Of a DNA stretch of 64,000 nucleotides, positions 7,654 to 59,806 are shown one piece after another. The position numbers and the translations under genes were made by a program. Below the pieces are notes generated by a model. That model was given only the letters and a program-made list of their open reading frames with translations, did no database searches and had not been told where the DNA came from. Positions within the stretch are counted from its first letter, which is position 1. Every line of letters starts with the position of its first letter. The DNA comes from Burkholderiales bacterium (GTDB taxonomy: Bacteria > Pseudomonadota > Gammaproteobacteria > Burkholderiales > SG8-41): contig JAURHM010000007.1 in the NCBI GenBank assembly GCA_030833315.1, positions 3,760 to 67,759 of the forward strand. The letters are read 5' to 3'.

Positions 7654-7720
7654 TTCCTCAAAAATAAAACGGCAGCCGGCACAGTGCGAACCGGCTGCCG
7701 CCCGCGTAGAATTAATACCG

Positions 7721-8596
7721 TCAGTACACCATGCCCGCCGCCGCATCGCGCGGCAGGTCTTTCTCCGCCTCGCCGAGCTGTTCATAAAACGACTCGATAT
7801 AGGCCTTGAAGGTCGTGTCGTGACGGTGCATTTCGATGTCGCCAAAATCCACCTGCGGCCACGGCTGCAGGTCGAAGTGATTGTACTCATCCTTGCCGCG
7901 CACCAGGCTCGCCGGCATGCGGCGCTTGCCGATGTAACGCGTGCGGGTCGGAATATAACTCAGCGCGATACCGACACGGCGCTCGTCTGAGCGGTTGGGC
8001 TGCGACTGGTGCACAACGCAAGTGTGGTGCAGCGAAAACTGCCCGGGCTTGAGGATCACCCGGTCTATTTCGGTCTGATCAAACCACTCGACGATGATCT
8101 GTCCCGCGGTATTAACGCTGTTCTTGATCAGCCCGCTTTTCTGTTGCAACTGGCCGCGGATATGGCTGCCGACGGCAAACTCCACCGGCCCCGTCTCCGC
8201 CGTCACGTTGCACAGCGCGACCCAGGCGGTGACGTGATCGAAGGGCCGCAAACCAAAGTACGTGGAGTCCTGATGCCAGGCGGCTATGCCCTCGCTGTGC
8301 GGCTCCTTGATGAAAAAGCGCGTGGTGTAGAGCAGGATGTCGGGGCCGAGCAGGTCTTCGGCGGCATCGACGATCGCCGGCGTGCGGGCCAGCTCATCGA
8401 CCCACTTGCACATGAAATGCAGGTTGCCGCGGTATTTCTTGTCGATCGCCATCAGCGATCCGCCGAGATGTTCTTCGGTCTTGCGCAATTCTTCGCGATA
8501 ACGGGAAACATCCGACGCACTCAGCGCATCGAGCGGATAGACATAACCGTCGGCACGGTAATCACGCTGCTGTTTGACGCTCAGTTTTTTCGGCAT
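7721..8596 (-). CDS. phytanoyl-CoA dioxygenase (PhyH) family Fe(II)/2-oxoglutarate oxygenase
   Basis: YRADGYVYP, WHQDSTYF (HxD), and a distal His in SLHHTCVVHQS. AAGGAGG lies 5 nt before ATG 8596. Confidence 0.7.
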   Translation of the reverse strand: MPKKLSVKQQRDYRADGYVYPLDALSASDVSRYREELRKTEEHLGGSLMAIDKKYRGNLHFMCKWVDELARTPAIVDAAEDLLGPDILLYTTRFFIKEPHSEGIAAWHQDSTYFGLRPFDHVTAWVALCNVTAETGPVEFAVGSHIRGQLQQKSGLIKNSVNTAGQIIVEWFDQTEIDRVILKPGQFSLHHTCVVHQSQPNRSDERRVGIALSYIPTRTRYIGKRRMPASLVRGKDEYNHFDLQPWPQVDFGDIEMHRHDTTFKAYIESFYEQLGEAEKDLPRDAAAGMVY

Positions 8597-13914: not shown

Positions 13915-14877
13915 ATGTTTTTTGCTTCAAGCCAAACCCTGCTGCCCGTCCTCGCAATGTTTATTGCGTTCAATGCAATGGCGCAGAACTATCCCAGCAA
14001 GCCGGTCCGCATGATCCTGCCCTTCGCCGGCGGCACTGAAACCGTTGGCCGTCTGGTGGCCGGCAAGCTGTCCCCGGCACTGGGACAGCAGGTTGTGCCT
14101 GAACCCCGGCTCGGCGCCACCGGCAATATCGGTTACGTCGCGGCAGCGAAATCACCGGCGGACGGCTATACGCTGCTCATCGGCGCGGTGCCGCTGCTGA
14201 CCAACCCGCACCTCAATCCCAAATCCGGCTTCGACCCGATCCGCGATTTCGCGCCGGTGGCGCTGCTGGCAACCATTCCCAATGTGGTGATCGTGCACCC
14301 TTCCGTACCGGCGAAAAACATGCGTGAGCTGATCGCCATCGCCCGCAGCAAACCGGGCAAGATCGCCTACGGCTCCGGCGGCTTCGGTTCGGCCAACCAT
14401 CTGGCCGCGGAACTGATGCAGTCGTTTTCCAAGATCAAGTTCACCCATGTGCCCTACAAGAGCGCGACACTGGGCATTGCCGGTGCGCTGAGCGGGGATG
14501 TCGACATGGTGATCGTGGTGATCTCCAGCGCCGTGCCTTTCGTAGAATCCGGCCGCATGCGCGCGCTGGCCATCCTCGACAACAAGCGCAACATTTCGAT
14601 TCCTGACGTTCAGACTTCGAAAGAAGCAGGATTGCCGGGGCTGGTCGCCATTAACTGGTACACCATCATGGCGCCAGCCGGCACACCGCGAGCCATCATT
14701 GACCGTCTGAATGCCGAATCGGTGAAAGCCATGTCTGCACCGGACATGCGTGAAAAATTTGTGGCGATGGGAGGCGACATTGCCACCGGCACGCCGGAGC
14801 AGACCGGCGAATTCCTGCGCGCGGAAAATGACCGCTGGGGCAAGGTCATCCGCGAAGCCAACATCAAGGCGGAGTAA
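13915..14877 (+). CDS. Bug/TctC-family periplasmic solute receptor
   Basis: Signal peptide, NYPSKPVRMILPFAGG, HVPYKSATLG. Confidence 0.8.
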   Translation: MFFASSQTLLPVLAMFIAFNAMAQNYPSKPVRMILPFAGGTETVGRLVAGKLSPALGQQVVPEPRLGATGNIGYVAAAKSPADGYTLLIGAVPLLTNPHLNPKSGFDPIRDFAPVALLATIPNVVIVHPSVPAKNMRELIAIARSKPGKIAYGSGGFGSANHLAAELMQSFSKIKFTHVPYKSATLGIAGALSGDVDMVIVVISSAVPFVESGRMRALAILDNKRNISIPDVQTSKEAGLPGLVAINWYTIMAPAGTPRAIIDRLNAESVKAMSAPDMREKFVAMGGDIATGTPEQTGEFLRAENDRWGKVIREANIKAE

Positions 14878-17550: not shown

Positions 17551-18528
17551 TTATTGCGGGGTGATTCCGGCGCGACGCGCGATGGCGCCGATGTTGGCGA
17601 TCTCCGTGGCAATCCTGCGGTCATAGGCCTCGGGTGTAGTCGACACCGGCTCGGCACCCAGTGCGCGCATGCGTTGCTGGGTATCCGGCGCAGCGAGTGC
17701 CGTGGCGATTTCACGATTGAGCCGCGTAATGATCGGGCGCGGCGTTTTCACCGGCGCCACCATGCCGCCCCAGGATTCGAATTCAAAACCCGGCAGTCCT
17801 GATTCCGCCAGCGCCGGGATATCCGGATAGACGGTCGAACGCTTCAAAGAAGTCACGCCCAGGCTGACCAGTCGCCCGTCACGCACCAGGCTGGCCAGTG
17901 AGGCCACCGGCGCCATGAAAAACTGCACGCGATTGGTCATGGTGTCGTTCATCGCTTCGGGGATGCCTTTGTAAGGCACATGGACCACATCGATTTTCGC
18001 GGCATCCTTGAACACCTCGCTGGCGAAATGCGTACCGCTGCCAGTGCCGGCGGAGCTGAAATTCAGCGCGCCCGGTTTGGCTTTCGCCATCGCGATCAGA
18101 TCCCTGGCGGTTTTGACGCCAAGGCTTGGCGGTACCACCAGCAGGTAAGCCGAGCTGTACATCTGCGTGATACCTGCAAAATCCTTGACCGGATCGTAGT
18201 TGAGCTTGCGTACGGCCGGCGCAATCACGTGTGACGATGAAACGCCGAGCAAGGTATGGCCGTCGGGGGTGGAATCGGCGACGATCTTGGTACCGATGGC
18301 GCCACCGGCGCCGGGCCGGTTGTCCACCACGACGGGCTGGCCGAGCGCCTCGCCCAGCTTGCCGCCGATCAGCCGCGAAAAAATGTCCGGCTGGCCGCCA
18401 GGCGTGAAGCCGACGACGATGCGGATCGGTCGCGTCGGAAAATCACTGCCGCCTTTGGCCTGTGCGGCAAATACACCGCCGCTGACCAACAGCAGCGAAA
18501 CGGCAACTGCAGTTTTTTGCATGTTCAT
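17551..18528 (-). CDS. Bug/TctC-family periplasmic solute receptor
   Basis: MNMQKTAVAVSLLLVSGGVFA signal, FPTRPIRIVVGFTPGG, VDNRPGAGG, HVPYKG. GGAGGAA RBS before ATG 18528. Confidence 0.85.
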   Translation of the reverse strand: MNMQKTAVAVSLLLVSGGVFAAQAKGGSDFPTRPIRIVVGFTPGGQPDIFSRLIGGKLGEALGQPVVVDNRPGAGGAIGTKIVADSTPDGHTLLGVSSSHVIAPAVRKLNYDPVKDFAGITQMYSSAYLLVVPPSLGVKTARDLIAMAKAKPGALNFSSAGTGSGTHFASEVFKDAAKIDVVHVPYKGIPEAMNDTMTNRVQFFMAPVASLASLVRDGRLVSLGVTSLKRSTVYPDIPALAESGLPGFEFESWGGMVAPVKTPRPIITRLNREIATALAAPDTQQRMRALGAEPVSTTPEAYDRRIATEIANIGAIARRAGITPQ

Positions 18529-18551
18529 GTTTCCTCCGGTTATTGTTGTGT

Positions 18552-19412
18552 TTACAGTCCGAGCCTGAACTTGAATTTGAGAATCTGCTCCAGCGTGTTC
18601 TGGCCGTTCTGATGCGGCGGCAGCACATCCCACAACTCGGCGTTGGGCATCAGCTCCTTGGTCGCCCACGAAGCCGAATGCGCATGTGATGAATCATTGC
18701 CGGACAGGATGAGCGCAGGAATATCCATTTTCATCAGCGCGGCAGGGCCGGCGCCCGAAAACTGGGTGTCATTGAACAAGGCGTCCCGCGTCTGCTCGCA
18801 GATATTGAAATAGCGATCCATGTCCTGCCTGACGTAGGCGGCGGCAAATTCCGCGTCATGCACCGTGGGCGGCCCCCAGGGGCCGATCTCCGCATCCTCC
18901 CAGAAACTGCGTTTCTCCGGCGCACGCTTCACCACTGCAGCAAAACCGTTCGCACGCACGAAATCCATGTGGCGCTGGAAATAAGTCTGGCCCTTCAGCA
19001 GCCAGCGGTAACCGCCCACCGGCCAGTGCAGACAAAGCCCGAGGCACATTTCGGGGTGACGTTCCGCAAAAGCGGTGGCCAGTGCCGCGCCCATGCAGCT
19101 GCCGAGGATCAGCGCTTTTTTCTCGCCGGCGTGCTCCAGCATCGCCTTCGCTTCCAGCACGTAATGATCCCAGGTCAGCGGCTCAATGCGACCTCCGGAA
19201 AAACCGGCCTCACGGCGGTCATAGGCAATCGCCTTGAAATGTTTGCCCAGCGTGGCCAGACCGTCCATCTCCTTCCACTCGCGCTTGCCGCCGGCTGCGG
19301 TCCAGCGCGCGATGGTCGAGCCGAAACCACCCGGCGCGAACATCAGCAGCGGCGTGCCCTTGCCGACGATTTCGTAATTGATCTTGATGCCATTGATGGT
19401 GGTATTGGCCAT
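18552..19412 (-). CDS. alpha/beta-fold hydrolase
   Basis: GKGTPLLMFAPGG and the nucleophile elbow LGSCMGA (Gly-x-Cys/Ser-x-Gly). Confidence 0.65.
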   Translation of the reverse strand: MANTTINGIKINYEIVGKGTPLLMFAPGGFGSTIARWTAAGGKREWKEMDGLATLGKHFKAIAYDRREAGFSGGRIEPLTWDHYVLEAKAMLEHAGEKKALILGSCMGAALATAFAERHPEMCLGLCLHWPVGGYRWLLKGQTYFQRHMDFVRANGFAAVVKRAPEKRSFWEDAEIGPWGPPTVHDAEFAAAYVRQDMDRYFNICEQTRDALFNDTQFSGAGPAALMKMDIPALILSGNDSSHAHSASWATKELMPNAELWDVLPPHQNGQNTLEQILKFKFRLGL

Positions 19413-21203: not shown

Positions 21204-22226
21204 TTAACGTTTGATGATGCCGAGATCGGCCATCATTTTTTCCAGCAGGACATGCTCGGCCTCGAGGAACTTGCGGGTTTCCGCCGCGCCTTTGAAATCG
21301 CGGTCCCAGGCATTCTTCTCCAGCGCTTCTTTCCAGTCCGGATCATCGACCATGCGCGAAAACACGCGATCCCAGTAAGCGGTCTGGGCCGCAGTCAGGG
21401 CCTTGGGCGCGAGAAAACCGCGCCAGGCTGAATACACTGCATCAACGCCCTGCTCCTTGAGCGTCGGCACTGCGGCAAAAGCGCCGGGCTGGCGCTGCGG
21501 CGAACTGATGCCCAGCACGCGGATGCGGCCTTCCTGCAACAGCGGTAGCGCGTTGCCGATCGTGCCCGCCCAGACTTCAACGTGGCCGCCCAGCGTTGCC
21601 GTGGTACCGGCACCACCGGAAGAATAGACCACGATTTTCAATGCTTTCGGATCAATACCCGCGGCACGGGCAATCATGCCGAGCACGATATGGTTCTGAT
21701 TGCCGCGCGCCGGCGAAATACCGAAACTCACCGATCCGGGATCGGCCTTCAGCTTCGCCACAAGATCCTTGCCGCTCTGAATGCCCGAGGCCGTACGCAC
21801 CCACACCGCCACATATTCATGCATGACGATGTTCAGCGGCGTGATGTCCTGGTAACGCAGCGTACTTAAACCCATGATCTGGTTGGTCACCAGCGCGGTA
21901 TTCAGCGTTGAAATGTAATGGGCGTCGCCCGGATGCAGGTTCAGCGAACTCCAGGCCAGCGTGCCGCTGCCACCCGGCCTGTTGTTGACCGTAACGCTGG
22001 GCATGCCCGGCACCGACTGCAGGTATTTCTGGATCACCCGCGCCGACCGGTCCGCCGCACCACCCGCACCCGAAGACACAATGATTTCGACATTGCGTTC
22101 CGGTTTCCAGTCTTGTGCGTAAGCCGGCTGTGCGTACACCGAACATAAAACCATACCCGGCAGCAAGACGGCATGCTCCAGCGTACGCATGATCAACCCC
22201 GGAAACCGCTTGCCTTGATGAACCAT
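21204..22226 (-). CDS. Bug/TctC-family periplasmic solute receptor (divergent)
   Basis: VNNRPGGSG and a TctC-like C-terminal half. AGGAGG RBS before ATG 22226. Confidence 0.7.
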   Translation of the reverse strand: MVHQGKRFPGLIMRTLEHAVLLPGMVLCSVYAQPAYAQDWKPERNVEIIVSSGAGGAADRSARVIQKYLQSVPGMPSVTVNNRPGGSGTLAWSSLNLHPGDAHYISTLNTALVTNQIMGLSTLRYQDITPLNIVMHEYVAVWVRTASGIQSGKDLVAKLKADPGSVSFGISPARGNQNHIVLGMIARAAGIDPKALKIVVYSSGGAGTTATLGGHVEVWAGTIGNALPLLQEGRIRVLGISSPQRQPGAFAAVPTLKEQGVDAVYSAWRGFLAPKALTAAQTAYWDRVFSRMVDDPDWKEALEKNAWDRDFKGAAETRKFLEAEHVLLEKMMADLGIIKR

Positions 22227-22430
22227 GACTCCTCCTGTCAGTGGCATTTGAAACCCGGAGCATTATAGAGAGAAGCCGGTCACCTGAATGCATATTGCGG
22301 CAAGTCCAGACTACGGAAGGATGGGTCATCAGCGCCTGCTCACCGCCTCATTTGCACATCTCCATATGCTGGAAACATCAAAGAGACCGGACGGCCTGCG
22401 GAGTAGAATTCGATATCCCAAAATTCACTG

Positions 22431-26971: not shown

Positions 26972-27969
26972 TGGATACGCCTTTCAAAACCCGCATCACC
27001 GATCTTTACGGCATTCGTTTGCCTATCATCGCCAGCGGCCTGATGTGGCTGGCCGATCCGGTGTATGTCGCAGCGGTGGCGCGCGCCGGATTGATCGGTT
27101 TCATGACGGCGGCGAGTTTCCCGGATGTGGCCGCCTTGCGCACCGGCATCCGCCGTTGCCGCGAGTTGAGCGAAGGCAAACCCTTCGGCGTCAACATCAT
27201 GATCCGCGCCAGCCGTGATGGCACAGACCGTGTCAATCCGCTGATCGACGCAGTGATCGAAGAGGGTGTTAAGTTCGTCGAAACCGCGGGCAACAATCCC
27301 GAGGCTTACATCAGACGACTGAAAGATGCCGGCATCAAGGTGCTGCACAAAGTGCCGGGCGTACTGCGCTATGTCAAAAAGGCAGAAGCGCTCGGCGCGG
27401 ATGCGGTGACGGTGATCGGTTATGAAGCCGGCGGCCATCCGGGCGTCGAACCGGTCGGGAGTATTGTCGCTGGCGTAGCCGCTGCGCGTGCCGTGAAAAT
27501 TCCGGTGATAGTTGCGGGCGGCCTGGGCACCGGCGAACAACTCGTCGCGGCACTGGCGCTGGGGGCTGAGGGCGTGGCCATGGGCACGCGCTTTCTGGTG
27601 TCCGAAGAAATCTGGGCGCATCGCCAATACAAGGAACGGCTGGTTGCGGCCGGTGAAACCGAAACCACGCTGCTGCTGCAGAGCATGCGTAATACCCAAC
27701 GTGCGCTGAAAACCGGCCATGTGGCGATGATCCAGCAGCTTGAACAGGCGCAACCCGTCGATACCCAAGCCATCCTGCCCCATATCATGGGCACTGTCGG
27801 CCGCAAGGCCTACGAGACCGGCGAGGTCGAGAAAGCCATGCTGTCCTGCGGCCAGGGCGTCGTATTCGCCGATAAAATCGAACCGCTGGCCGCCATCGTC
27901 GACCGTCTCGACAGCGAAGCCCGCACGGCAATGGCACGGTTACAGTCGCTGTATCGGCCAGGCACCTGA
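26971..27969 (+). CDS. nitronate monooxygenase / FMN-dependent NPD-family oxidoreductase
   Basis: GIRLPIIASGLMW, GYEAGGH, and GAEGVAMGTRF motifs. TAATG overlap with the upstream gene. Confidence 0.75.
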   Translation: MDTPFKTRITDLYGIRLPIIASGLMWLADPVYVAAVARAGLIGFMTAASFPDVAALRTGIRRCRELSEGKPFGVNIMIRASRDGTDRVNPLIDAVIEEGVKFVETAGNNPEAYIRRLKDAGIKVLHKVPGVLRYVKKAEALGADAVTVIGYEAGGHPGVEPVGSIVAGVAAARAVKIPVIVAGGLGTGEQLVAALALGAEGVAMGTRFLVSEEIWAHRQYKERLVAAGETETTLLLQSMRNTQRALKTGHVAMIQQLEQAQPVDTQAILPHIMGTVGRKAYETGEVEKAMLSCGQGVVFADKIEPLAAIVDRLDSEARTAMARLQSLYRPGT

Positions 27970-27988
27970 TCCCGTTCGGAGGAGCACC

Positions 27989-28951
27989 ATGAAAAAATAT
28001 AACTGTCTGTTTTTAATTGCATTTTCTGCAGCTGCTGTTTCGGCAGGCGCACAGAACTATCCCAGCAAGACCGTACGCCTGATCGTACCTTTCGCCGCGG
28101 GTGGCAGCACCGACGTGATCGCGCGGGTACTGGCGCCGAAACTCAGCGAAGCCTGGGGCCAGCAGGTCATCGTCGACAACCGCCCAGGCGGCAACACCAC
28201 CATTGGTACTGACATCGTCGCCAAGTCCGCGCCCGACGGCCACACACTGCTGGTCACGCCGGCGCCGTTCACCGTGGTGCCCAGCGTGATGACCAAGCTG
28301 CCTTACGAACCTGCGAAAGACTTTGAACCGATCACGCTGATCAACACCACGCCGATGGGTCTGGTAGTACATCCGGGTGTGCCGGCAAAAAATCTGAAGG
28401 AACTGATCGCGCTGGCAAAAACACGTCCCGGCCAGATGAATTTCGGCTCCTCCGGCAGCGGCGGCGTGCCGCATCTGTCGGGCGAACTGCTCAACACCAT
28501 GGCCGGCCTGAAAATCGTGCATGTGCCTTACAAGGGCAATGCACCGGCACTGGCCGATCTCGTCGGCGGCCATGTCGACATGGCCTTCAACGGCCTGACC
28601 TCGGTAATGCCCTTCATCAAATCCGGCCGCCTGCGCGTGCTGGGTGTCACCAGCATCGGCCGCACCGCCGCGTTGCCCGAAGTGCTGACCTTCGATGAGC
28701 AGGGACTCAAGGGTTTCCAGGCAGTGGCCTGGAACGGCCTGAGCGCTCCGGCACGCACGCCAAAAGAGGCCATTGCCCGCATCCAGGAAACAAGCTCGCG
28801 TATCGTCAAATCGCCGGAACTCGCGGAGCAACTGAAGCGCGACGGCTCCGACCCGGTCGGCAGCACCACCGCTGAATTCGTCGTCCATCTGCGCGATGAA
28901 GTGGTGAAGTGGAAAAAAGTCCTCGATCGCGCCGGCATCAAATCCTTCTGA
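27989..28951 (+). CDS. Bug/TctC-family periplasmic solute receptor
   Basis: MKKYNCLFLIAFSAAAVSAGA signal, NYPSKTVRLIVPFAAGG, VDNRPGGN, HVPYKGNAPA. GGAG RBS. Confidence 0.85.
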   Translation: MKKYNCLFLIAFSAAAVSAGAQNYPSKTVRLIVPFAAGGSTDVIARVLAPKLSEAWGQQVIVDNRPGGNTTIGTDIVAKSAPDGHTLLVTPAPFTVVPSVMTKLPYEPAKDFEPITLINTTPMGLVVHPGVPAKNLKELIALAKTRPGQMNFGSSGSGGVPHLSGELLNTMAGLKIVHVPYKGNAPALADLVGGHVDMAFNGLTSVMPFIKSGRLRVLGVTSIGRTAALPEVLTFDEQGLKGFQAVAWNGLSAPARTPKEAIARIQETSSRIVKSPELAEQLKRDGSDPVGSTTAEFVVHLRDEVVKWKKVLDRAGIKSF

Positions 28952-31465: not shown

Positions 31466-32272
31466 ATGGAATACACGCTCAAACGCCCCGACGGCTGCAA
31501 CATTTTCTACACCATCGACGACTATACCGATCCCTGGCAAAAAGCCGAGACCGTACTTTTCGTGCATGGTCTCGCCGAATCGGGTGAAGCATGGCGCGCC
31601 TGGGTGCCGCATTTCGCGCGTCACTACCGCGTGGTGCGCCTCGACTTGCGCGGCTTCGGCCGTTCGACGGCAATGACTCCCGAACATGAATGGTCGATGA
31701 ATGAACTGCTCGACGACATCGAAGAGTTGATCCATCACATCGGCTGCAGCAAGGTGCACCTGATCGGCGCCAAGAGCGGCGGTTCGATGTCGCTGGCGCT
31801 GGCCGCCAACCGCCCGCAGCTGGTGAAAACACTGATCGGCGTCACACCACCAGTCCTTCCTGCTGCCGGCATCGACCAGTGGGTGGAGCACATGAACACC
31901 AAAGGCGTGGTCGACTGGGCCGCCCACACCATGCAGGGCCGCCTCGGCAGCAAAGCAACCAAAGCCGAAGTCGACTGGTGGATCCACCACCTGCAGGGCA
32001 AGACCGCACTGTCGACGCTGCAAAGTTATCTGCGCTGGGTGCCCAAACTCGACATCCGCGAAGATGTCAAACGCATCACCTGCCCGACGCTGATCATCAC
32101 CACCACCGGCAGCGGCTTGCGCTCGGTTGATGGCGTCAAAGCCTGGGTCTCGGGTGTGAAATCCGCACAACTGCTGGTGATGGAAGGCGATGCCTGGCAT
32201 GCCGCCGGCGCCTACCCGGACCGCTGTGCCGAGGCTTCGCTGAAATTCCTCGCTGAACAGGCGCAAGCATGA
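31466..32272 (+). CDS. alpha/beta-fold hydrolase
   Basis: VLFVHGLAESG and the nucleophile elbow IGAKSGGS. Confidence 0.7.
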   Translation: MEYTLKRPDGCNIFYTIDDYTDPWQKAETVLFVHGLAESGEAWRAWVPHFARHYRVVRLDLRGFGRSTAMTPEHEWSMNELLDDIEELIHHIGCSKVHLIGAKSGGSMSLALAANRPQLVKTLIGVTPPVLPAAGIDQWVEHMNTKGVVDWAAHTMQGRLGSKATKAEVDWWIHHLQGKTALSTLQSYLRWVPKLDIREDVKRITCPTLIITTTGSGLRSVDGVKAWVSGVKSAQLLVMEGDAWHAAGAYPDRCAEASLKFLAEQAQA

Positions 32273-33231
32273 AACGCCCACTGCAACTGATCGCCAGCCT
32301 CACCCTCGCCGCCTGCTGCGCGGCGGCGTCTGCGCAAAACTATCCGGCCAAAACCGTACGCATGATTGTCGGTTACCCGCCGGGCGGTCCGACCGATGTG
32401 CTGGCCCGTATCGTTTCGCAAAAACTCACCCAGGCCTGGGGTCAGCAGGTCATTGTCGACAACCGCCCCGGCGCCAGCGGCATGATCGGCGCCGAGTTCA
32501 CGGCACGCGCAGCGCCCGACGGCTACACCCTGCTGATGGTACCGGTGACCTATGCGGTCACACCCAGCCTGTTCAGCAAAATGACCTATGACGTCGAGAA
32601 AGATCTCGCGCCCGTCGCGCAGGTCGCTGCCGCCCCCTTCATTCTGGTCGTGCATCCGACGCTGCCGGTAAAAACCGTGAAAGACCTGATCACGCTGGCC
32701 CGCAGCCGTCCCGGTCAGCTGAACTTCGCTTCGGCGAGCACCGGCGGCATGCCCCACCTCGCCGGCGAATTGTTCAACAGCATGACCGGCGTAAAGATGG
32801 TGCACATCCCCTACAAAGGCGCAGCCCCTGCAACCACCGACCTGCTGTCGGGCCAGATCACGCTGATGTTCAACAATATGCTTTCGGCGATGCCGCAGGT
32901 CAAAGCGGGCCGCCTGCGCGCCGTGGCAGTCACCAGTCTCAAACGCTCTGCAGCCGCTCCTGAACTGCCGACCATATCTGAAACCGTGCCGGGTTATGAA
33001 GCCAATGGCTGGTATGGCTCGTTTGCACCGGCAGCGACGCCCAAAGACCTGATCAACCGCGTCAATGGCGAAATGAACCGCATTATGAAAATGCCGGACG
33101 TCACGCAGCGCCTCGCCGGCGATGGCGTCGAGGCAGTTGGCACCACACCCGAGCAGTTCGGCGTCTATCTGAAGCAGGAAATCGCCAAATGGGGCAAAGT
33201 GGTCAAAGCCTCCGGCGCCAAAGCCGACTGA
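32269..33231 (+). CDS. Bug/TctC-family periplasmic solute receptor
   Basis: Signal peptide, NYPAKTVRMIVGYPPGG, VDNRPGASG, HIPYKGAAPA. ATGA overlap with the upstream gene. Confidence 0.85.
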   Translation: MKRPLQLIASLTLAACCAAASAQNYPAKTVRMIVGYPPGGPTDVLARIVSQKLTQAWGQQVIVDNRPGASGMIGAEFTARAAPDGYTLLMVPVTYAVTPSLFSKMTYDVEKDLAPVAQVAAAPFILVVHPTLPVKTVKDLITLARSRPGQLNFASASTGGMPHLAGELFNSMTGVKMVHIPYKGAAPATTDLLSGQITLMFNNMLSAMPQVKAGRLRAVAVTSLKRSAAAPELPTISETVPGYEANGWYGSFAPAATPKDLINRVNGEMNRIMKMPDVTQRLAGDGVEAVGTTPEQFGVYLKQEIAKWGKVVKASGAKAD

Positions 33232-36593: not shown

Positions 36594-37283
36594 ATGCAGA
36601 TTAAGATCCTGACATCCAACAGCACGCTGCCGGTGCTCAATGCACTGATACCTGCCTATGAAAAAAACAGCGGCAACACCGTGTCGATCAGCGCAGATTC
36701 CGCCAAAGCCATGGTCGCCCGCATCCGCGGCGGCGAGACCGGCGACATACTGGTGCTCGGCAACGGTGCGGTAAAGGAACTCACTGAAGCCGGCTACATC
36801 AACGGCACCACCCGCCGCGGCTTTGCCCGCGCCATCGTCGGCGTCGGCGTGCGCAGCGGCACGCCGCACCCGGACATCAGCTCGGTCGATGCCTTTCGCA
36901 AGTCCCTGCTCGCCGCCCGCGCCATCGCCCACACCGTCCACGGCGCCAGCGGCATGTACATCCCGACGCTGATCGAGAAGCTCGGCATCACTGCCGAGAT
37001 GAAACCGAAAACGGTGACCCGCCCCGGCGGTTATATCGGCACGGTGGTTGTCGCCGGTGAAGCCGACATCGCCCTGCAGCAGATTCCGGAACTGCTGGCA
37101 GTGCCCGGACTGGATTGCGTCGGCCCGGTGCCCGACGCGGTGCAGAAATCCTTCGAGACCTCGATAGCGCTGTTCAGAAACAGTACACAAGCTGCAGCCG
37201 CGCAGGCCATGGCGGACTTTTTCGCCAATCCGGTCAACACGCCGCTGTTTCGCGAAAAAGGTCTGGAGCACGTTACAAAATAA
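36594..37283 (+). CDS. ModA-like (PBP type 2) substrate-binding-domain protein lacking a signal peptide
   Basis: MQIKILTSNSTLPVLNALIPAYEKNSG..., molybdate/tungstate-SBP-like. No N-terminal hydrophobic signal. Confidence 0.55.
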   Translation: MQIKILTSNSTLPVLNALIPAYEKNSGNTVSISADSAKAMVARIRGGETGDILVLGNGAVKELTEAGYINGTTRRGFARAIVGVGVRSGTPHPDISSVDAFRKSLLAARAIAHTVHGASGMYIPTLIEKLGITAEMKPKTVTRPGGYIGTVVVAGEADIALQQIPELLAVPGLDCVGPVPDAVQKSFETSIALFRNSTQAAAAQAMADFFANPVNTPLFREKGLEHVTK

Positions 37284-37312
37284 TCCGGTCACGAAACCAC
37301 GAGGAGCCCGCA

Positions 37313-38293
37313 ATGACGCTGAAAACCCTGCACATGGTTGCTGCACTGGCCGCAGCATCCGGAGTGATTGCACTGCCGGCAATGGCTACCGGGAGTTATC
37401 CGACCAAACCGATCCGCTTCATCGTGCCCTATCCGCCCGGGGGCACCACCGACCTCGTTGCGCGCGGCATTGCCGGCAAGCTCGCCGAAAAATACGGACA
37501 GCAGGTGGTCATCGACAACCGCGGCGGCGCCAGCACCATCATCGGCACTGACCTGATGGCGAAGTCCGCACCGGACGGCTACACCTTCGGCCTGATCACC
37601 CAGACCTCGATGTCGATCAATCCCAACGTCGTTCCGAAACTGCCTTACAACACTGAACGCGACCTGGCACCGATCACCCAGGTCGTTTATTTCCCCTATG
37701 TGATTGCCGCGCACCCCTCAACACCGTTCAGCACTATGAAGGAAATGATCACACTGGCCAAAGCCAGACCGGGAACGATCACCTACGGCACACCGGGAAC
37801 AGCATCCACCAACCACCTTGGTGGTGCGCAACTGGAACAACTGATCGGCGCGAAACTTCTGCATGTGCCGTTCAAGGGCGCGGGCCCCGCAATCACCGCC
37901 GCACTCGGTGGCCAGGTGCAGACCGTGATCACCGGTGCGGCCACGGTGATTCCCCAAGCGAAGACCGGTAAACTCAAGGTCATTGCCTTCGCCGCCGAAA
38001 AACGCCACCCGAACTGGCCGGACATTCCGTCCACCGGTGAAGCCGGTCTCAAAGGTTATGAAGCCGGCACCTGGTTCGGCACCGTTACCCGTACCGGCGT
38101 GGCCAAATCCATCATCCTCAATCTCAACAGGGAAATTGTCGCGGCACTGAATACCGCTGAACTCAAAACCAGCCTGACCGGCGCCGGCTTCGACATTCGC
38201 ACCCAATCACCGGAAGAATTCGGTCAATACATGGCCGCAGACCGCGCCCTGATCGGCAAAATCATCAAAACCGCGAACATTACCCTCGATTGA
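37313..38293 (+). CDS. Bug/TctC-family periplasmic solute receptor
   Basis: MTLKTLHMVAALAAASGVIALPAMA signal, SYPTKPIRFIVPYPPGG, IDNRGGAS, HVPFKGAGPA. GAGGAG RBS. Confidence 0.85.
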   Translation: MTLKTLHMVAALAAASGVIALPAMATGSYPTKPIRFIVPYPPGGTTDLVARGIAGKLAEKYGQQVVIDNRGGASTIIGTDLMAKSAPDGYTFGLITQTSMSINPNVVPKLPYNTERDLAPITQVVYFPYVIAAHPSTPFSTMKEMITLAKARPGTITYGTPGTASTNHLGGAQLEQLIGAKLLHVPFKGAGPAITAALGGQVQTVITGAATVIPQAKTGKLKVIAFAAEKRHPNWPDIPSTGEAGLKGYEAGTWFGTVTRTGVAKSIILNLNREIVAALNTAELKTSLTGAGFDIRTQSPEEFGQYMAADRALIGKIIKTANITLD

Positions 38294-44840: not shown

Positions 44841-45878
44841 CTATGGCGTCTTGATTTCGTAAGTCACGCTCTGCGAACCGTTCTTGCCGCCCCAGCCGGG
44901 GATGTAGCAGGACTGCACCCCCGCCTTGCCGCCGGCGGCGATGACCAGCAAATCCTGCGGCGTGTGCACCAGCGTCTGCATGGTCGCTTCGGTTTCCGGG
45001 GTCACCGGACCGGGACGGATGTTGGCGCGCTGCATTTCAGCCTGCGACATCTTGCTGTGTTCAAACACATAGTTCTGCACATCTTCGCGCGACCAGCCCG
45101 CCTTCTGCATGATCAGCTGGTGCTCGCCGGCAAAGACCATCGCGTACTGCGGCTGACGGTTGGTGCCGGCCGAAAAACGCATCTGCGCGCAGGCCGTGGT
45201 CAGCACGCCTTCGGGTGTGGCACTGAGGCCGTTCGAATACTGGTGCACGCCGAGCGCCGCGAAAATCGTCACTGCGTTCTGATCGGGTTTGAATCCGCGC
45301 GTGGTGTGGAATGCCGGCCACGGGCTGTCTTCCTCGTTCTCGGCAATGCAGAAGGTGTATTTGCCGGGGTGGCCGAGGCTCGAGCGGTCGAGCACACCGG
45401 GTGTGGTGCCGATAACGTTCTGCATCACCAGGCGGATGGCTCGGCCGATGGTGGCATTGGCGCGCCAGCCCTGGCCGAATACATTGTCGCCGCTGTTGAT
45501 GTTGAGCTGTTTGGCAATCGGGCCGTTGACCAGCATGAACACGGCCGAGCCGCCGGTGCTGGTGGCCGGCCCGTGATAACCGTATTTCGGATCGGCCAGC
45601 GCCCGGATCGTCGCGGTGATCACCGGCATGTATTCCGGTTTGCAGCCGGCCATCACGGCATTGATCGCCACCTTCTCCGCGGTCACCGAGACCTGACGGT
45701 TCTCGATGAAGGACAGCTGCTCGTCGGGCTTGAAACCGCCGGCATCCAGCATCGCGGCGATACGTTCCGCAGTCGGCGGAATCACCGGCAGGCCGTCGGT
45801 CCAGCCGTTGGCGTAACAAAGCTCGATGGCACTGCCCAGATCGTCGACGGTGTGTCGGCGTGATTTCAGTTCGATCAT
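44841..45878 (-). CDS. conserved-looking hypothetical protein (345 aa), family not recognised
   Basis: GGAGG RBS 5 nt before ATG 45878. No signal peptide or TM segments. Motif-like stretches GWTDGLPVIPPT and NAVMAGCKPEYMP. Lies 48 nt upstream of the UGSC gene on the same strand. Confidence 0.6.
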   Translation of the reverse strand: MIELKSRRHTVDDLGSAIELCYANGWTDGLPVIPPTAERIAAMLDAGGFKPDEQLSFIENRQVSVTAEKVAINAVMAGCKPEYMPVITATIRALADPKYGYHGPATSTGGSAVFMLVNGPIAKQLNINSGDNVFGQGWRANATIGRAIRLVMQNVIGTTPGVLDRSSLGHPGKYTFCIAENEEDSPWPAFHTTRGFKPDQNAVTIFAALGVHQYSNGLSATPEGVLTTACAQMRFSAGTNRQPQYAMVFAGEHQLIMQKAGWSREDVQNYVFEHSKMSQAEMQRANIRPGPVTPETEATMQTLVHTPQDLLVIAAGGKAGVQSCYIPGWGGKNGSQSVTYEIKTP

Positions 45879-46096
45879 GCTGCCTCCGGATGACCCGCTC
45901 TTTGGCGGGAAGATTGGCAATCAGTCTACCCCAGTTCCCGCGCCGTTCTGCGACCGTCCACATCGCGAAAACGCCGTAGCCACCTGCTCTTGATGCACCG
46001 CCAATAAGCCCTACTCCGGGCACCAGCCCAACTCTGGTAACGTGGCGGATAAAACACTACAAAAACAACGAAAATCGCCATACCAAGGAGAACATC

Positions 46097-48270: not shown

Positions 48271-48340
48271 GACTCCAAAACGAATTCAATCGATGATGGA
48301 ACAATTAATGATGCCAAATGCGGGCCAGCATCACTTCATG

Positions 48341-48376
48341 AAAAGAGCCGGCAGCCCTGAACAAGGATCTGCCGGC
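48341..48376 (-). terminator. rho-independent terminator after the peroxiredoxin gene
   Basis: GCCGGCAG/CTGCCGGC stem followed on the minus strand by UCUUUU. Confidence 0.55.
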
Positions 48377-48398
48377 CCGCTACCAACACCAGAGGAAA

Positions 48399-48860
48399 TT
48401 ACAGCTTTTTCAGCTGGGCGAGCAGTTCTTCGCTGGTCGGGATCGTGCCTTGCGGATAGACCTTGGCGTAACGGATGATGCCTTTGGCATCAATCACGTA
48501 GGCCGCGCGCTTGTCGATGCCTCGCTCCTCGTTGAAGATGCCGTAGGCCTTGCCCACCGCACCATGCGGCCAGAAGTCCGACAGCAGCGGAAACGGCACA
48601 CCGCCAAGAAAGTCAGCCCATCCCTTCAAACTCGGCACCGGATCGATGCTCAGCTGGAGGATCTCGACATTCAGCTTCTTGAATTCTTCGTAGTTCTCAC
48701 GGAACCCACGGACTTGATTAGTTCATCCGCCGGTAAACGCAAAAGGCATGAATGCCACCACGACCGCACGCCCCTTGAAGCCGGACAGCGTGATTTTCTG
48801 GTCGGAATTGTGCGCGGCCAATGTGAAATCGGGTGCGGCACTGCCTGCTTGAATTTCCAT
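48399..48860 (-). CDS. selenocysteine-containing 1-Sec peroxiredoxin (AhpC/TSA-BCP-like); TGA 48723-48725 read as Sec
   Basis: The last 45 codons of track ORF 48723..49073 (MEIQ...PFAFTGG) and ORF 48399..48638 share one frame, interrupted by a single TGA. Read-through gives PFAFTGG-U-TNQVRGF, i.e. the peroxidatic position. AGGAGA RBS before ATG 48860. Confidence 0.75.
48689..48710 (-). promoter_or_regulatory. candidate bacterial SECIS hairpin
   Basis: In the mRNA, 13-34 nt after the UGA: CGU(G)GGUUC / GAACUACG stem with one bulged G and apical loop CGUGA. Confidence 0.5.
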
Positions 48861-48952
48861 GCAAGTTCTCCTGATTATGTTGAAAACTGAATTGCCGGCA
48901 CAGAATAACCTCGTGCGGAAGCCGCCGCAATCAAAGCCGGACAAAAGCGGTA

Positions 48953-49804
48953 TCAGGCCCTGCGCTCGGCGCGGATCATGTACAAACTGCTGCCGACGAT
49001 CACTGCGGCCCCCGCCAGCAGCCACAGATCGGGCACATCGCCCCAAACCGCATAACCGAGCAGCGCCGCCCATAACAGCGCGGTATATCGGACCGGCGCC
49101 AACGCCGAAGCCTCGCCGGTGCGCAGCGCATCGATGATGCAGAAGTGCGCTGTACCGTTAAAAATGCCTGCGGCCAGAAACCAAAACGCATCCTGCGTGC
49201 TGACCGGGGCCCAACCCATCGGCAGGGTTATGATTCCGCCTGTCATCAGCACGATGTTCGACCAGAACAGGATGGAAATCGAGGTTTCGGTGCGCGCCAG
49301 GCGGCGCGTCATCACGTCGCGCATTGCATTGACCATCGCTGCCATCAGCGGCAACAGCAAGGCCCACTGAAAACCCGCGCTGCCCGGACGCATAATGATC
49401 AGCACACCGACAAATCCGCCGATCACCGCGATCCAGCGGTGCCAGCTGATGCGCTCGCCGAGCAGCGGCACCGACAGGATCACCATGAAAATCGGACTCA
49501 TGTAGAGCATGGTGATCGCCGTCGCCAGCGGCAGCTCGGAAAAGCTCCACACGATCAGCACCGAACCGACAATGAACAGCGTACCGCGCAGCAATTGACC
49601 GCGCCCGTCGACGACACGTAGCAAGGGCCAACTACTGAAAAACAGCACATAGGGAATCAACACCAGCAGCGTGCCCGCCTGGCGCAACCCGATCACCTGC
49701 CCTACGGGGTAATGCTGCACGAGGTGTTTGCTGACGGCATCGTTCGCGGTCAGCAGCATGATGCCCAGGGCCATCAGGCCGAGGCTGCGCAATATAGGGG
49801 ACAT
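48953..49804 (-). CDS. EamA/DMT-family transporter
   Basis: Ten hydrophobic segments in a two-EamA-repeat pattern. The start ATG 49804 overlaps the upstream TGA (TGATG). Confidence 0.75.
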   Translation of the reverse strand: MSPILRSLGLMALGIMLLTANDAVSKHLVQHYPVGQVIGLRQAGTLLVLIPYVLFFSSWPLLRVVDGRGQLLRGTLFIVGSVLIVWSFSELPLATAITMLYMSPIFMVILSVPLLGERISWHRWIAVIGGFVGVLIIMRPGSAGFQWALLLPLMAAMVNAMRDVMTRRLARTETSISILFWSNIVLMTGGIITLPMGWAPVSTQDAFWFLAAGIFNGTAHFCIIDALRTGEASALAPVRYTALLWAALLGYAVWGDVPDLWLLAGAAVIVGSSLYMIRAERRA

Positions 49805-53341: not shown

Positions 53342-53485
53342 GACACAAGGCGAGAATTATCCCGCATCTGATACCACTTTATGGCGCGGTGTAAGGACTG
53401 CTACATTGTCACGACCAAACCGTAACCGTCGGCGCCGGGGAATTTTCCACCACAGGCGCGGTCAGACCGCCACACAGGAGAAATC

Positions 53486-54043
53486 ATGAAACGACGCGGA
53501 TTTTTGCAGGGACTGACGCTGGCGGCGTTCGGCAGCACATTCCACCATACGGCTGCCGCCGCCCCGGTCGGCACGATGAAGGAAATCCAGGCCATGCAGA
53601 ACAACTGGAAGACCCTGCTGGCCGCCGGCTTCAAGGCCCCGGCACCCACTGACGCACTCAAGCTGTCCAATGATGAATGGCGCAAACGCCTCGACAAGGC
53701 GCAGTTCAACGTGCTGCGCGAAGAGGGCACAGAGCGCGCCGGCAGCAGCCCGCTCAACGGCGAAAAACGCCCCGGCGTATTCGCCTGCGCCGGCTGCGAC
53801 CTGCCGCTGTTCACCTCCGAAATGAAATACGAATCGGGAACCGGCTGGCCGAGCTTTTTCACCACCATACCCGGCGTCTTCGCGACCAAGAAGGATTACC
53901 TGCTGTTCACACCACGGACCGAATACCACTGCGTACGCTGCGGCGGCCACCACGGTCATGTTTTTGACGACGGCCCGGCGCCGACCGGCCAGCGCTGGTG
54001 CAATAACGGCGTGGCGTTGAAGTTCATTCCCAAAACCGCCTGA
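53486..54043 (+). CDS. msrB: peptide-methionine (R)-S-oxide reductase MsrB with export signal
   Basis: Tat-like MKRRGFLQGLTLAAFG. Zn CxxC pairs (CAGCD, CVRCGGHHGHVFDDGP). Catalytic RWCNN. Confidence 0.8.
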   Translation: MKRRGFLQGLTLAAFGSTFHHTAAAAPVGTMKEIQAMQNNWKTLLAAGFKAPAPTDALKLSNDEWRKRLDKAQFNVLREEGTERAGSSPLNGEKRPGVFACAGCDLPLFTSEMKYESGTGWPSFFTTIPGVFATKKDYLLFTPRTEYHCVRCGGHHGHVFDDGPAPTGQRWCNNGVALKFIPKTA

Positions 54044-54081
54044 ACCACCGCCGGGCACCCGGCCGGCCCCACCGCAGGCAT

Positions 54082-54627
54082 GTGCTGATCGCGCAATTAT
54101 CCGCAATTACGATACACTGCGACGCAGGAGCCGGCTCCTTGTCCAAAACGCCCTGCACATTACGTCTTGCCCGCGACAGCGATATCCAGCCGATCGCCGT
54201 GATGTCGCGCTGCCTGATTGAAGTCGGTCTACGCGGCTGGACCTGGCATCCCACCCGTATCGCCCGTGCGCTGCGCAGCCGTGACACCTGCGTGCTGGTC
54301 GCCGAAGTCGAAAACGGCTTTGCGGGTTTTGCCATCGCCGAATTCGGCGACACTCGCGCCCATCTTTCCTTGTTCGCCGTGCAACCGGCCTGTCAGCGTC
54401 GCGGCATCGGCCTGGCGATGATCGAATGGCTCATGGAATCGGCGCTGACCGCCGGCATCACGCAGATTGATGTCGAAATGCGCTCCAATAATTTTGCCGC
54501 ACACAGTTTCTACGAGGCCCTGGGCTTTGTGTGCACCGGACAGGTCGCCGGTTATTACCAGAACATCGAGACCGCGGTGCGCATGCAGCGCCGGATCGGC
54601 GCCATGGCCGCTACACCACAGCAGTAA
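54082..54627 (+). CDS. GNAT-family N-acetyltransferase (RimI-like)
   Basis: QRRGIGLAMIEWL acetyl-CoA motif and FYEALGF. The GTG start is uncertain. Confidence 0.7.
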   Translation: MLIAQLSAITIHCDAGAGSLSKTPCTLRLARDSDIQPIAVMSRCLIEVGLRGWTWHPTRIARALRSRDTCVLVAEVENGFAGFAIAEFGDTRAHLSLFAVQPACQRRGIGLAMIEWLMESALTAGITQIDVEMRSNNFAAHSFYEALGFVCTGQVAGYYQNIETAVRMQRRIGAMAATPQQ

Positions 54628-58516: not shown

Positions 58517-59674
58517 TCAGGCCGCCAGTTCCTGCCTGATGGCAGCCACAGCGCGCTCCAGATCTTCCTCGTTATTCGCAAAACCCATCGAGATACGCAG
58601 CGCACCGTCTTTGACGTTGACGATGACGCGGTGCTTTTCGCGCAGGCGATCCATCATGGCGCCCGCATCAGGCACTGGAACGCTGACGATCTGCGCGCGC
58701 TCTGCCCAGGGCTCCGGGGTCAGCGTGGTTAATCCGGCAGAGCGGATCATCGCCATGCATTGCGTCGTCAAATCCCGGACGCGCGCCTCGATCGCCGGCA
58801 GGCCGATTCCGGCAATGAACTGCGCACTGCGCCGCAGGACATGCAGGCCGAGGAAGTTTGGGTTGCCACCCTCGAAGCGGTGCGCCGTGCGCACATAGTC
58901 GAACTGGCTTCTCAGGTGGGCGCTGGCCTTCGCCGATCCGGGCGCCACCGGCGCTTTAAGGAACGGCGTCTTCAGTTCATCGATCAGTTCCTCACGGCAA
59001 TACAGCAGGCCCGTGCCGGTGAGGCCGAACAGGTTCTTGTGCCCGCCGATGGCCACCAGATCGGCGCCCAGGCCCGCCAGCGGCGCAGCCAGTATGCCGG
59101 CCGCCTGCACACCATCAACCACCAGCCGTGCACCATGCTCGCGACATGCCGCACCGAGAGCCGGTATATCAACACGATAGCCGTTGCCATAAGTGATGTA
59201 GGCGGTGGAAACCACTCGCGTACGTTTATCCATCTGCTCGAGAAAAGCCGCCACCGGCAGACATCCATCGCGGTTTTTTGCGAAACGGATCTCGACCCCC
59301 TTCGCAGCCCAGTGCTGCCACACCCAGACGTTGGCGACATGCTCCATGTCGGTGAGCACGACGTTGTCTCCGGGACGCAGATCGAAGGCATGTGCCGCGA
59401 TATTGAGCCCCTCGGTGGTATTTTTGGTGAAAGCGATTTCGGCCGGCTTCGCACCGAGCAATGCCGCCATCGCGGCACGGGTTTCGGCGACGCTCACCGC
59501 CGACCAGGCATCGGCACCCGCCGTCTCGGCGATGTCATTCCAGTAATCCCGCATTGCCGCTTCCTGACAGCGCGGCGGCACCGTCTTGCGTGCCGTATCC
59601 AGATAGGTCCAGTTGGCCAGCGCAGGAAATTCCCCGCGCAGTTTCGCCCAGTTCACTTCGGTTGCCGCAGCCAT
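58517..59674 (-). CDS. class V aminotransferase / cysteine desulfurase-like PLP enzyme
   Basis: Fold-type I pattern with GGHKNLFG (PLP Lys). Start refined to ATG 59674. Confidence 0.7.
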   Translation of the reverse strand: MAAATEVNWAKLRGEFPALANWTYLDTARKTVPPRCQEAAMRDYWNDIAETAGADAWSAVSVAETRAAMAALLGAKPAEIAFTKNTTEGLNIAAHAFDLRPGDNVVLTDMEHVANVWVWQHWAAKGVEIRFAKNRDGCLPVAAFLEQMDKRTRVVSTAYITYGNGYRVDIPALGAACREHGARLVVDGVQAAGILAAPLAGLGADLVAIGGHKNLFGLTGTGLLYCREELIDELKTPFLKAPVAPGSAKASAHLRSQFDYVRTAHRFEGGNPNFLGLHVLRRSAQFIAGIGLPAIEARVRDLTTQCMAMIRSAGLTTLTPEPWAERAQIVSVPVPDAGAMMDRLREKHRVIVNVKDGALRISMGFANNEEDLERAVAAIRQELAA

Positions 59675-59806
59675 CGATGTCCTTTCCAGTCCGGTCGCTT
59701 CCGCAGGCCGGTGCTTGCTGATACTCTGCATTCAATGTCCGTTGTGATAGGCCACCACCTTGCGTGACATCACACGCAGCAGTTTACCGTTAAAGGAGCA
59801 TCCGCC

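Follow-up and report, generated by a model that had tools for sequence, protein, structure and literature searches.

A predicted selenocysteine peroxiredoxin of the AhpE type, read across an in-frame UGA in Burkholderiales

An interrupted peroxiredoxin frame

The gene described here lies on the minus strand of the window, the whole 64-kb stretch of DNA that was analyzed. From 48860 to 48399 runs a 153-codon AhpC/TSA frame that ends in TAA and has a single internal stop, the TGA at 48725..48723. Its translation is MEIQAGSAAPDFTLAAHNSDQKITLSGFKGRAVVVAFMPFAFTGG*TNQVRGFRENYEEF...LKKL*, with asterisks for the stops, and the same frame can be written MEIQAGSAAPDFTLAAHNSDQKITLSGFKGRAVVVAFMPFAFTGG-[UGA]-TNQVRGFRENYEEFKKLNVEILQLSIDPVPSLKGWADFLGGVPFPLLSDFWPHGAVGKAYGIFNEERGIDKRAAYVIDAKGIIRYAKVYPQGTIPTSEELLAQLKKL. 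The original prediction, made from the letters alone, held that two open reading frames, 48723..49073 and 48399..48638, share one frame broken only by this TGA, and translation confirms it. The other structural claims of that prediction stand as well: reading through the stop gives P39-F-A-F-T43-G-G-U46, which places the UGA at the peroxidatic Cys of the PxxxTxxC motif; the 153-residue read-through product contains no Cys at all; and an AGGAGA ribosome-binding site, at 48872..48867, precedes the ATG at 48860. The parts of the gene are as follows.

48867..48872, minus strand: Shine-Dalgarno-like AGGAGA, read from the sequence, 6 nt 5' of the ATG at 48860
48726..48860, minus strand: N-terminal 45 codons, M1 to G45, with P39 and T43 of PxxxTxxU, from the translation; the Pfam AhpC-TSA match covers residues 6 to 131; dN/dS 0.26
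48723..48725, minus strand: in-frame UGA, putative Sec46 at the peroxidatic position; TGA in 76/76 distinct sequences and 78/78 TGA-form loci
48402..48722, minus strand: C-terminal 107 codons, T47 to L153, with the catalytic R118; dN/dS 0.15 at a dS of ~1.0; the AhpE alignment runs across the UGA
48399..48401, minus strand: true stop TAA, from the translation
48339..48378, minus strand: probable intrinsic terminator, a GC-rich hairpin followed by CUUUUC, ~21 nt past the stop (-25 kcal/mol, z = -3.4)

With a strong hairpin and U-tract 3' of its stop, the prx gene looks like a self-contained unit. A consensus scan missed this terminator, probably because the loop of the simple stem-loop is longer than the 3 to 8 nt that the scan allows.

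To which peroxiredoxins does the product belong? With the UGA read as Cys, it matches Pfam AhpC/TSA (PF00578) at E = 1.1e-33 (116 bits against a cutoff of 26) and Pfam Redoxin at E = 7.5e-22. The top seven PDB sequences are AhpE of the Rv2238c type (1xxu, 1xvw, 4x0x, and others) or a close AhpC/TSA homologue, with E values from 3e-35 to 2e-34; the AhpE matches have the same length, and the alignment spans residues 4 to 140. The next-best PDB class is that of the 2-Cys peroxiredoxins, at E = 7e-20. In the alignments to 1xxu and 4x0x, the UGA column is occupied by the Cys of the AhpE active site, PLAFTGIC. Relatives carry the JGI name "mycoredoxin-dependent peroxiredoxin." Among NCBIfam models the best is that of the selenoprotein PrxU (NF040737), which scores 95.6 bits, below its cutoff of 270, and covers positions 35 to 175 of a 233-position profile. 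A score so far under the cutoff indicates that the gene product is not a PrxU orthologue.

The set of catalytic residues is complete: P39, T43, the UGA (U46), and R118, which together make up the peroxiredoxin catalytic set, are invariant in the 76 family sequences. Elsewhere in the protein, 35 of the 76 have no Cys and 40 have one, at nonconserved sites that are mostly residue 65. No second Cys is therefore conserved in the family, which fits a "1-Sec" enzyme. From its sequence, the predicted product is an AhpE-type, 1-Cys-style peroxiredoxin whose peroxidatic position is encoded by UGA.

Relatives in genomes and in public records

A scan with one genome per species yielded 80 loci, all but one of them from metagenome-assembled genomes (MAGs) and mostly from Burkholderiales or "Betaproteobacteria." Judging by record names, the MAGs with the gene come mostly from freshwater, groundwater, and soil samples. 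TGA stands at exactly the same column in 78 of the 80 loci, over protein identities from 97% down to 59%, and codon and residue conservation were assessed over 76 distinct family sequences. Two of the 78 are labeled Chloroflexota. Two distant low-GC relatives likewise have TGA at this column.

What do the remaining relatives carry at this position? P0006, a close Cys orthologue with 67% identity, reads FTGGCTNQV with the codon TGC and has a similar TctC-rich context. The actinobacterial homologue L079 also has TGC at the UGA column, and Cys is found there in approximately 20 representatives of more distant relatives. As the original prediction supposed, the Cys homologues (M. tuberculosis AhpE, P0006, and these ~20) thus have their Cys at exactly the UGA column. 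A published criterion for selenoproteins asks for at least two Cys homologues and a TGA conserved in more than one sequence (PMC1088965); in this family the pairing consists of 78 TGA loci on one side and P0006, L079, and the ~20 representatives on the other.

How does such a gene appear in public records? Database matches are overwhelmingly C-terminal fragments of 84, 91, or 104 residues. On four independent contigs, the gene callers had divided the frame into pieces of 45 and 91 aa, and fragments of 84 to 104 aa are labeled "redoxin domain-containing protein." A few seemingly full-length entries carry W at the UGA column; these entries (P0001, P0005, and P0009) also run past their own natural stop into unrelated tails, which means that a calling table with TGA as Trp was used and not that Trp is really encoded. 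The AhpE-type sub-family with predicted Sec is uniformly misannotated and is without a curated model, so that metabolic reconstructions of a widespread Burkholderiales group miss the peroxidase function.

The expectation that Sec-containing proteins of this kind are known, rare, and misannotated was therefore only partly borne out. That they are known and that they are misannotated, as split or Trp-containing gene calls, holds good. "Rare" is an overstatement at the family level, since among selenoproteins of bacteria, the TxxU peroxiredoxins rank with the more common ones (PMC2398784, PMC5029168).

The downstream element and the meaning of the UGA

Just past the UGA, the gene is constrained at the level of its codons. 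For residues G52 to Y57 (alignment columns 53 to 58), the codon entropy over the 76 distinct sequences is 0, the codons being GGG TTC CGT GAG/GCG AAC TAC. The Arg within this invariant block is CGT in 76/76 sequences, despite the 6-fold degeneracy of Arg codons. The next five codons (GAA GAA TTC AAG AAG) have entropies of 0.10 to 0.58 bit, and the rest of the gene has ~1 bit. Three features were mapped here, two of them alternative folds of the same RNA.

48675..48707, minus strand: suppressed synonymous variation, residues G52 to K62, +16 to +48 after the UGA, from codon entropy; altered in the Cys orthologue
48689..48710, minus strand: SECIS-like hairpin, model A, CGUGGGUUC-CGUGA-GAACUACG with one bulged G, +13 to +34, loop at 48701..48697; minimum-energy fold of the window sequence
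48699..48709, minus strand: model B, another possible register for the SECIS, with a stem of 4 bp and a GUU triloop on the GGGUUCCGU segment; 90% of cells paired

A hairpin with a CGUGA loop at +13 to +34 had been predicted, and model A, at 48710..48689, is that hairpin. From the 72-nt alignment, RNAalifold derived a single consensus structure, a hairpin of 5 bp, GGUUC-CGUGN-GAACU, which is the core of model A. Adding G25-C42 (paired in 70/70 sequences) and N24-G43 (59/70), with a bulged A, extends it to a 7-bp stem. This family stem pairs in nearly all sequences, against 17 to 49% pairing in slid controls, and G32, U33, and G34 of the loop never vary. Where the stem does vary, only one side changes and pairing is retained: four sequences have G-C in place of G-U, and one has A-U. 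Compensatory changes on both sides of core pairs are absent; the sole candidate, pair 23-44, is unpaired in 62/70 sequences. This absence follows from an element that is nearly invariant, so that support for the structure comes from invariance and the one-sided changes.

The Cys orthologue is informative in this respect. Its block reads GGA TTC CGC GAT AAC TAC, which differs at three of the six third positions that are otherwise invariant; one of the differences replaces the loop U, and the other two break stem pairs. That the block is altered where UGA is replaced by a Cys codon ties the RNA constraint to the presence of the UGA.

Which of the two registers is the functional one? Both fit the data, model B nearly as well as model A, and the precise fold of the SECIS is ambiguous. 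Model A alone accounts for the invariance at G36, C39, and C42. The register of model B corresponds to a strong 8-bp hairpin in the homologous segment of the distant low-GC Sec relative L090 (-12.7 kcal/mol, z = -4.2). Neither model explains the synonymous constraint out to +48, which reaches ~15 nt past either hairpin. In the family itself the hairpin is weak, at -3.5 to -8.7 kcal/mol with z from -0.7 to +0.7, and is no more stable than shuffled sequence. In folds of the entire +1 to +45 stretch, GAACC (columns 12 to 16) competes for GGUUC and wins in most sequences; in a local context of 30 nt, the hairpin forms in 68/70. With the UGA in the A site, the upstream GAACC arm would probably lie within the ribosome. 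Rfam gave no match across the whole window at the gathering threshold, and around the hairpin at E <=10, only a spurious snoRNA match.

In short, a SECIS-like stem-loop with a small apical loop containing G lies just 3' of the UGA, its register and stability being uncertain. In the E. coli fdhF SECIS, the loop G-U is a determinant for SelB. The G-U in the present loop and its distance from the UGA agree with the features of bacterial SECIS elements (PMC1088965). Taken at the sequence level, the UGA and the downstream block are the signature of a selenoprotein directed by a bacterial SECIS, with the SECIS itself a predicted one.

Insertion of Sec would of course require the corresponding machinery. 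ARAGORN found no tRNA, and hence no tRNA-Sec, in the 64-kb window or in the related loci L001 to L060, and SelA, SelB, and SelD are absent among the ~40 window open reading frames scanned with Pfam or NCBIfam. A tblastn search with E. coli SelA, SelB, and SelD gave no match in 574 kb (the 64-kb window plus 510 kb of related loci), which indicates that the machinery is not linked to the prx gene. In Betaproteobacteria, Sec decoding is a common trait, and its genes usually form a selA-selB-selC cluster adjoining fdhA (PMC1794560); this makes Sec machinery plausible in the source genome. The neighborhood of prx is itself little conserved, with EamA-prx-SDR synteny restricted to ~25 close relatives and no recurrent redox partner gene beside prx among the related loci. 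A split-ORF/GC3 scan of the window for a second selenoprotein gene gave shadow-frame artifacts only; the same scan also missed the prx gene and is thus insensitive.

How, then, is the UGA read? One answer is that it is a real stop and that the gene is decayed or split, leaving a 45-aa peptide and perhaps also a C-terminal fragment with a start of its own. Standard gene callers do report exactly such pieces, of 45 aa and 84 to 104 aa, but a stop kept at one column in 78 species between halves that are in frame and free of indels is hard to reconcile with decay. Both halves are under purifying selection: by pairwise Nei-Gojobori estimates, dN/dS is 0.26 over the N-terminal 45 codons and 0.15 over the 107 codons that follow the UGA, at a dS of ~1. 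Purifying selection 3' of the UGA means that the downstream part is translated in this frame. The residues directly after the UGA (T/K-N-Q-V-x-G-F-R) are also conserved, though they lie 5' of every start chosen by the gene callers, and an enzyme of the thioredoxin fold that was cut at its active-site helix would fail to form a peroxiredoxin. We therefore hold a genuine stop to be very improbable. Scarcely credible is a genetic code in which UGA has become a sense codon for Trp or Gly. It would account for the W in some database entries of relatives, but those entries are the gene-calling artifacts with unrelated tails described above, and the corresponding DNA loci carry TGA. Moreover, 11 of the window's 17 family-validated genes end in TGA, among them the EamA gene immediately upstream of prx, so the code is the standard one and the recoding is site specific. 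Pseudogene, split gene, and reassigned code were accordingly rejected on the conservation of the UGA, on selection, and on stop usage in the window.

The UGA might also be read through without Sec, either by a near-cognate tRNA that inserts Trp or Cys or by general read-through stimulated by the hairpin, with a nonselenoprotein as the result. Structures 3' of a stop codon are able to promote its read-through in general, and this reading draws on the failure to find Sec machinery in the window or related loci (574 kb) and on a hairpin that is weak and not backed by covariation. What makes it unlikely is the position of the UGA, exactly on the redox-active Cys column, a classic site of Sec/Cys pairs. 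Insertion of Trp would inactivate an enzyme that still has its full catalytic set of P, T, and R. Inefficient misincorporation of Cys would hardly have been favored over TGC throughout the history of at least 78 species, given that Cys is one base change away, as P0006 shows. The match of the loop G-U and the UGA distance to bacterial SECIS elements points the same way. We thus put the probability at roughly 0.9 that the UGA encodes selenocysteine in a functional 1-Sec peroxiredoxin, and we regard the locus as, very probably, the genuine gene of a small selenocysteine enzyme that destroys peroxides.

Catalysis, known systems, and significance

If this prediction is right, how would the enzyme be made and how would it work? 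The hairpin 13 to 34 nt past the UGA, with its invariant loop G-U, would act as a bacterial SECIS. It would recruit SelB-GTP-Sec-tRNASec as the UGA enters the A site, allowing Sec46 to be inserted and translation to continue. By analogy with the peroxiredoxin family, the selenolate, activated by P39, T43, and R118, would attack the hydroperoxide and be converted to the selenenic acid. As no second Cys is conserved (and the window protein has none at all), an external thiol partner would have to regenerate the enzyme, most likely a protein of the glutaredoxin or thioredoxin fold, possibly with glutathione.

What could this partner be? M. tuberculosis AhpE is recycled by mycothiol and the glutaredoxin-like mycoredoxin-1. 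Proteobacteria are not known to have either, so that recycling in the manner of AhpE is unlikely here and the reductant would have to differ. The nearest Cys relatives include natural fusions of the peroxiredoxin to glutaredoxin (P0121 and P0125) and to DsbA-like thioredoxin-fold domains (P0130, P0132, and P0148). Together with the use of mycoredoxin-1 by AhpE, these fusions suggest a reductant of the glutaredoxin/glutathione type or another thioredoxin-fold partner, which is our best guess.

Selenoproteins of the broader family are not new. PrxU of Eubacterium acidaminophilum is the experimental founder of the TxxU peroxiredoxins (Sohling 2001, as cited in PMC13188914). A 2006 survey listed 12 Prx (TxxU) genes and five independent Cys-to-Sec conversions, and it gave FdhA as the sole selenoprotein family in Betaproteobacteria (PMC1794560). 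The GOS data held 253 Prx (TxxU) sequences (PMC2398784), and by 2016, there were 91 genes in 78 organisms (PMC5029168). Under its broad definition, which comprises PF00578, TxxU, Cys homologues, and a SECIS-like element, the predicted gene belongs to the Prx (TxxU) family. It shares with this family the AhpC/TSA fold and, as predicted features here, Sec in place of the peroxidatic Cys and a SECIS within the coding region after the UGA, and in both cases Cys homologues are widespread and the genes are routinely misannotated. In contrast to PrxU, the present protein is short (153 aa), belongs to the AhpE subfamily, and occurs in a large clade of Burkholderiales MAGs.

The closest solved relative is M. 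tuberculosis AhpE (Rv2238c), the 1-Cys peroxiredoxin that defines this subfamily, which matches at E = 3e-35 over the same length. The two share P-x-A-F-T-G-x-C/U, SDFWPHG, and the catalytic Arg, and neither has a resolving Cys. They differ in that AhpE has a Cys codon where UGA stands here, and identity is only ~45%. Compared with the E. coli fdhF SECIS, the present element is much shorter and weaker (5 to 8 bp, ~-5 kcal/mol), its UGA lies outside the stem, its loop G-U is offset by 2 to 3 nt depending on the model, and its constraint continues past the hairpin. Sec-containing glutathione peroxidases (GPx) offer a further parallel if the proposed mechanism is right, as they too are selenol peroxidases of the thioredoxin fold that have no resolving Cys and are recycled by an external thiol. 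They are a different family, with a Gln/Trp/Asn tetrad where the present enzyme has a P/T/R active site, and the resemblance is one of mechanism and not of membership.

A literature search found no paper describing a natural Sec-containing AhpE. What is new at the level of prediction is an AhpE-type Sec sub-family distinct from the PrxU type, as well as its host range, with the TGA form in at least 78 species-level genomes of mostly uncultured Burkholderiales. One may go further and picture a distinct sub-family of AhpE-type 1-Sec peroxidases without a resolving Cys that has long been kept in a large, probably aerobic radiation of Burkholderiales, where selenoproteins are considered rare, is shared, recoding block intact, with Chloroflexota-labeled genomes, and serves as a bacterial analogue of GPx recycled by glutaredoxin or glutathione. 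We offer this fuller picture tentatively and consider that, as a whole, it is rather unlikely to hold. The recoding signal could be unusual in its own right, being minimal and near invariant, and the constraint out to +48 hints at contacts besides the classical interaction of SelB with the loop.

Several uses would follow. A curated protein-family model flagged for Sec would mend the annotation of the sub-family. The invariant block of ~20 nt is a compact natural SECIS, albeit a predicted one, that may serve in engineering or as a search query. Being naturally free of Cys, the enzyme of 153 residues would allow a clean comparison of selenol with thiol peroxidatic chemistry on the well-studied AhpE scaffold. 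For the biology of the group, the predicted gene would extend the betaproteobacterial selenoproteome beyond formate dehydrogenase. According to a 2026 review, aerobic bacteria rarely retain selenoproteins (PMC13188914), and to this rule the peroxiredoxin of these Burkholderiales would be a counterexample.

Gene content of the window and constraint within prx

Expansion of the TctC ("Bug") family of tripartite tricarboxylate receptors is typical of Burkholderiales, and the 64-kb window around the AhpE-type peroxiredoxin gene (prx) holds at least seven such genes. The family also adjoins the selenocysteine (Sec) gene of one relative (locus L081) and the Cys-form gene of another (L085). The product of another gene belongs to the class-V aminotransferases (Aminotran_5, E = 5e-52) and is of the cysteine desulfurase/selenocysteine lyase type; it might, speculatively, be linked to selenium or sulfur mobilisation. 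Three further ORFs matched nothing in NCBIfam or Pfam at E values up to 1e-5. Several relatives (L019, L020, L030, and L031) keep the longest of these, of 359 aa, beside their prx region at 74-93% identity.

Features in the window
4279..5253, 6679..7890, 13915..14877, 17551..18669, 27740..28951, 32269..33231, 37115..38293: TctC genes
21204..22247, (-): ORF, 347 aa, no NCBIfam/Pfam match
44841..45920, (-): ORF, 359 aa, no NCBIfam/Pfam match
48339..48378, (-): probable intrinsic terminator, a strong GC-rich hairpin followed by CUUUUC
53462..54106, (-): ORF, 214 aa, no NCBIfam/Pfam match
58517..59731, (-): class-V aminotransferase

The hairpin of the probable terminator lies about 21 nt 3' of the prx stop codon (-25 kcal/mol, z = -3.4). 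The consensus scan passed over it, probably because the loop, if the structure is read as a simple stem-loop, is longer than the scan allows. Within prx, synonymous variation is still strongly suppressed at codons E58-K62 (GAA GAA TTC AAG AAG; 48675..48688), so that the suppression runs on for some 15 nt past either of the two alternative SECIS-like hairpin models, a constraint for which none of the tested structures or functions accounts.

Anomalous database entries

In public protein entries P0001, P0003, P0004, P0005, P0007, P0008, and P0009 the Sec position is filled by Trp, and some of these proteins run on beyond their natural stop with tails unrelated to the family. Such entries are gene-calling artefacts of a table reading TGA as Trp, applied to short metagenome contigs. 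One further entry, P0002, has Leu in this column (FTGGLKNQV); either a sequencing error or a change of TGA to TTA could account for it. P0011 and P0016 join a Cys-type, Actinobacteria-like N-terminal half (FYPFAFSG.CTGEL) to a C-terminal half nearly identical to that of the Sec clade, and may be assembly chimeras or recombinants.

Possible reductant and range of the Sec form

What might reduce these enzymes in the cell? Among the nearest Cys-type relatives are natural fusions of the peroxiredoxin to glutaredoxin (P0121 and P0125) and to DsbA-like thioredoxin-fold domains (P0130, P0132, and P0148), which give a Rosetta-stone hint of the physiological reductant.

The same Sec gene occurs in two Chloroflexota-labelled loci, L076 (3001-3450; "Thermoflexus") and L077 (3001-3444; Dehalococcoidia Baikal-deep-G103), at 59-60% protein identity. 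Their hairpin block is nearly identical too, with one pair-preserving G-to-A change in L077. This could reflect cross-phylum transfer or misbinning; the taxon labels of several listed "MAG TPA_asm" records, such as "Streptomycetaceae" and "Bordetella," look unreliable.

Two more distant relatives (about 42% identity), at L090 (254-715) and L091 (61-519), come from low-GC organisms (31% and 39% GC). Their DNA too reads TGA at the peroxidatic column, and their database proteins, P0122 and P0126, show W in this place. In L090 the homologous segment forms an 8-bp hairpin that is strong (z = -4.2) and closes on a GUU triloop. Sec use in AhpE-like peroxiredoxins therefore reaches well past the Burkholderiales clade.
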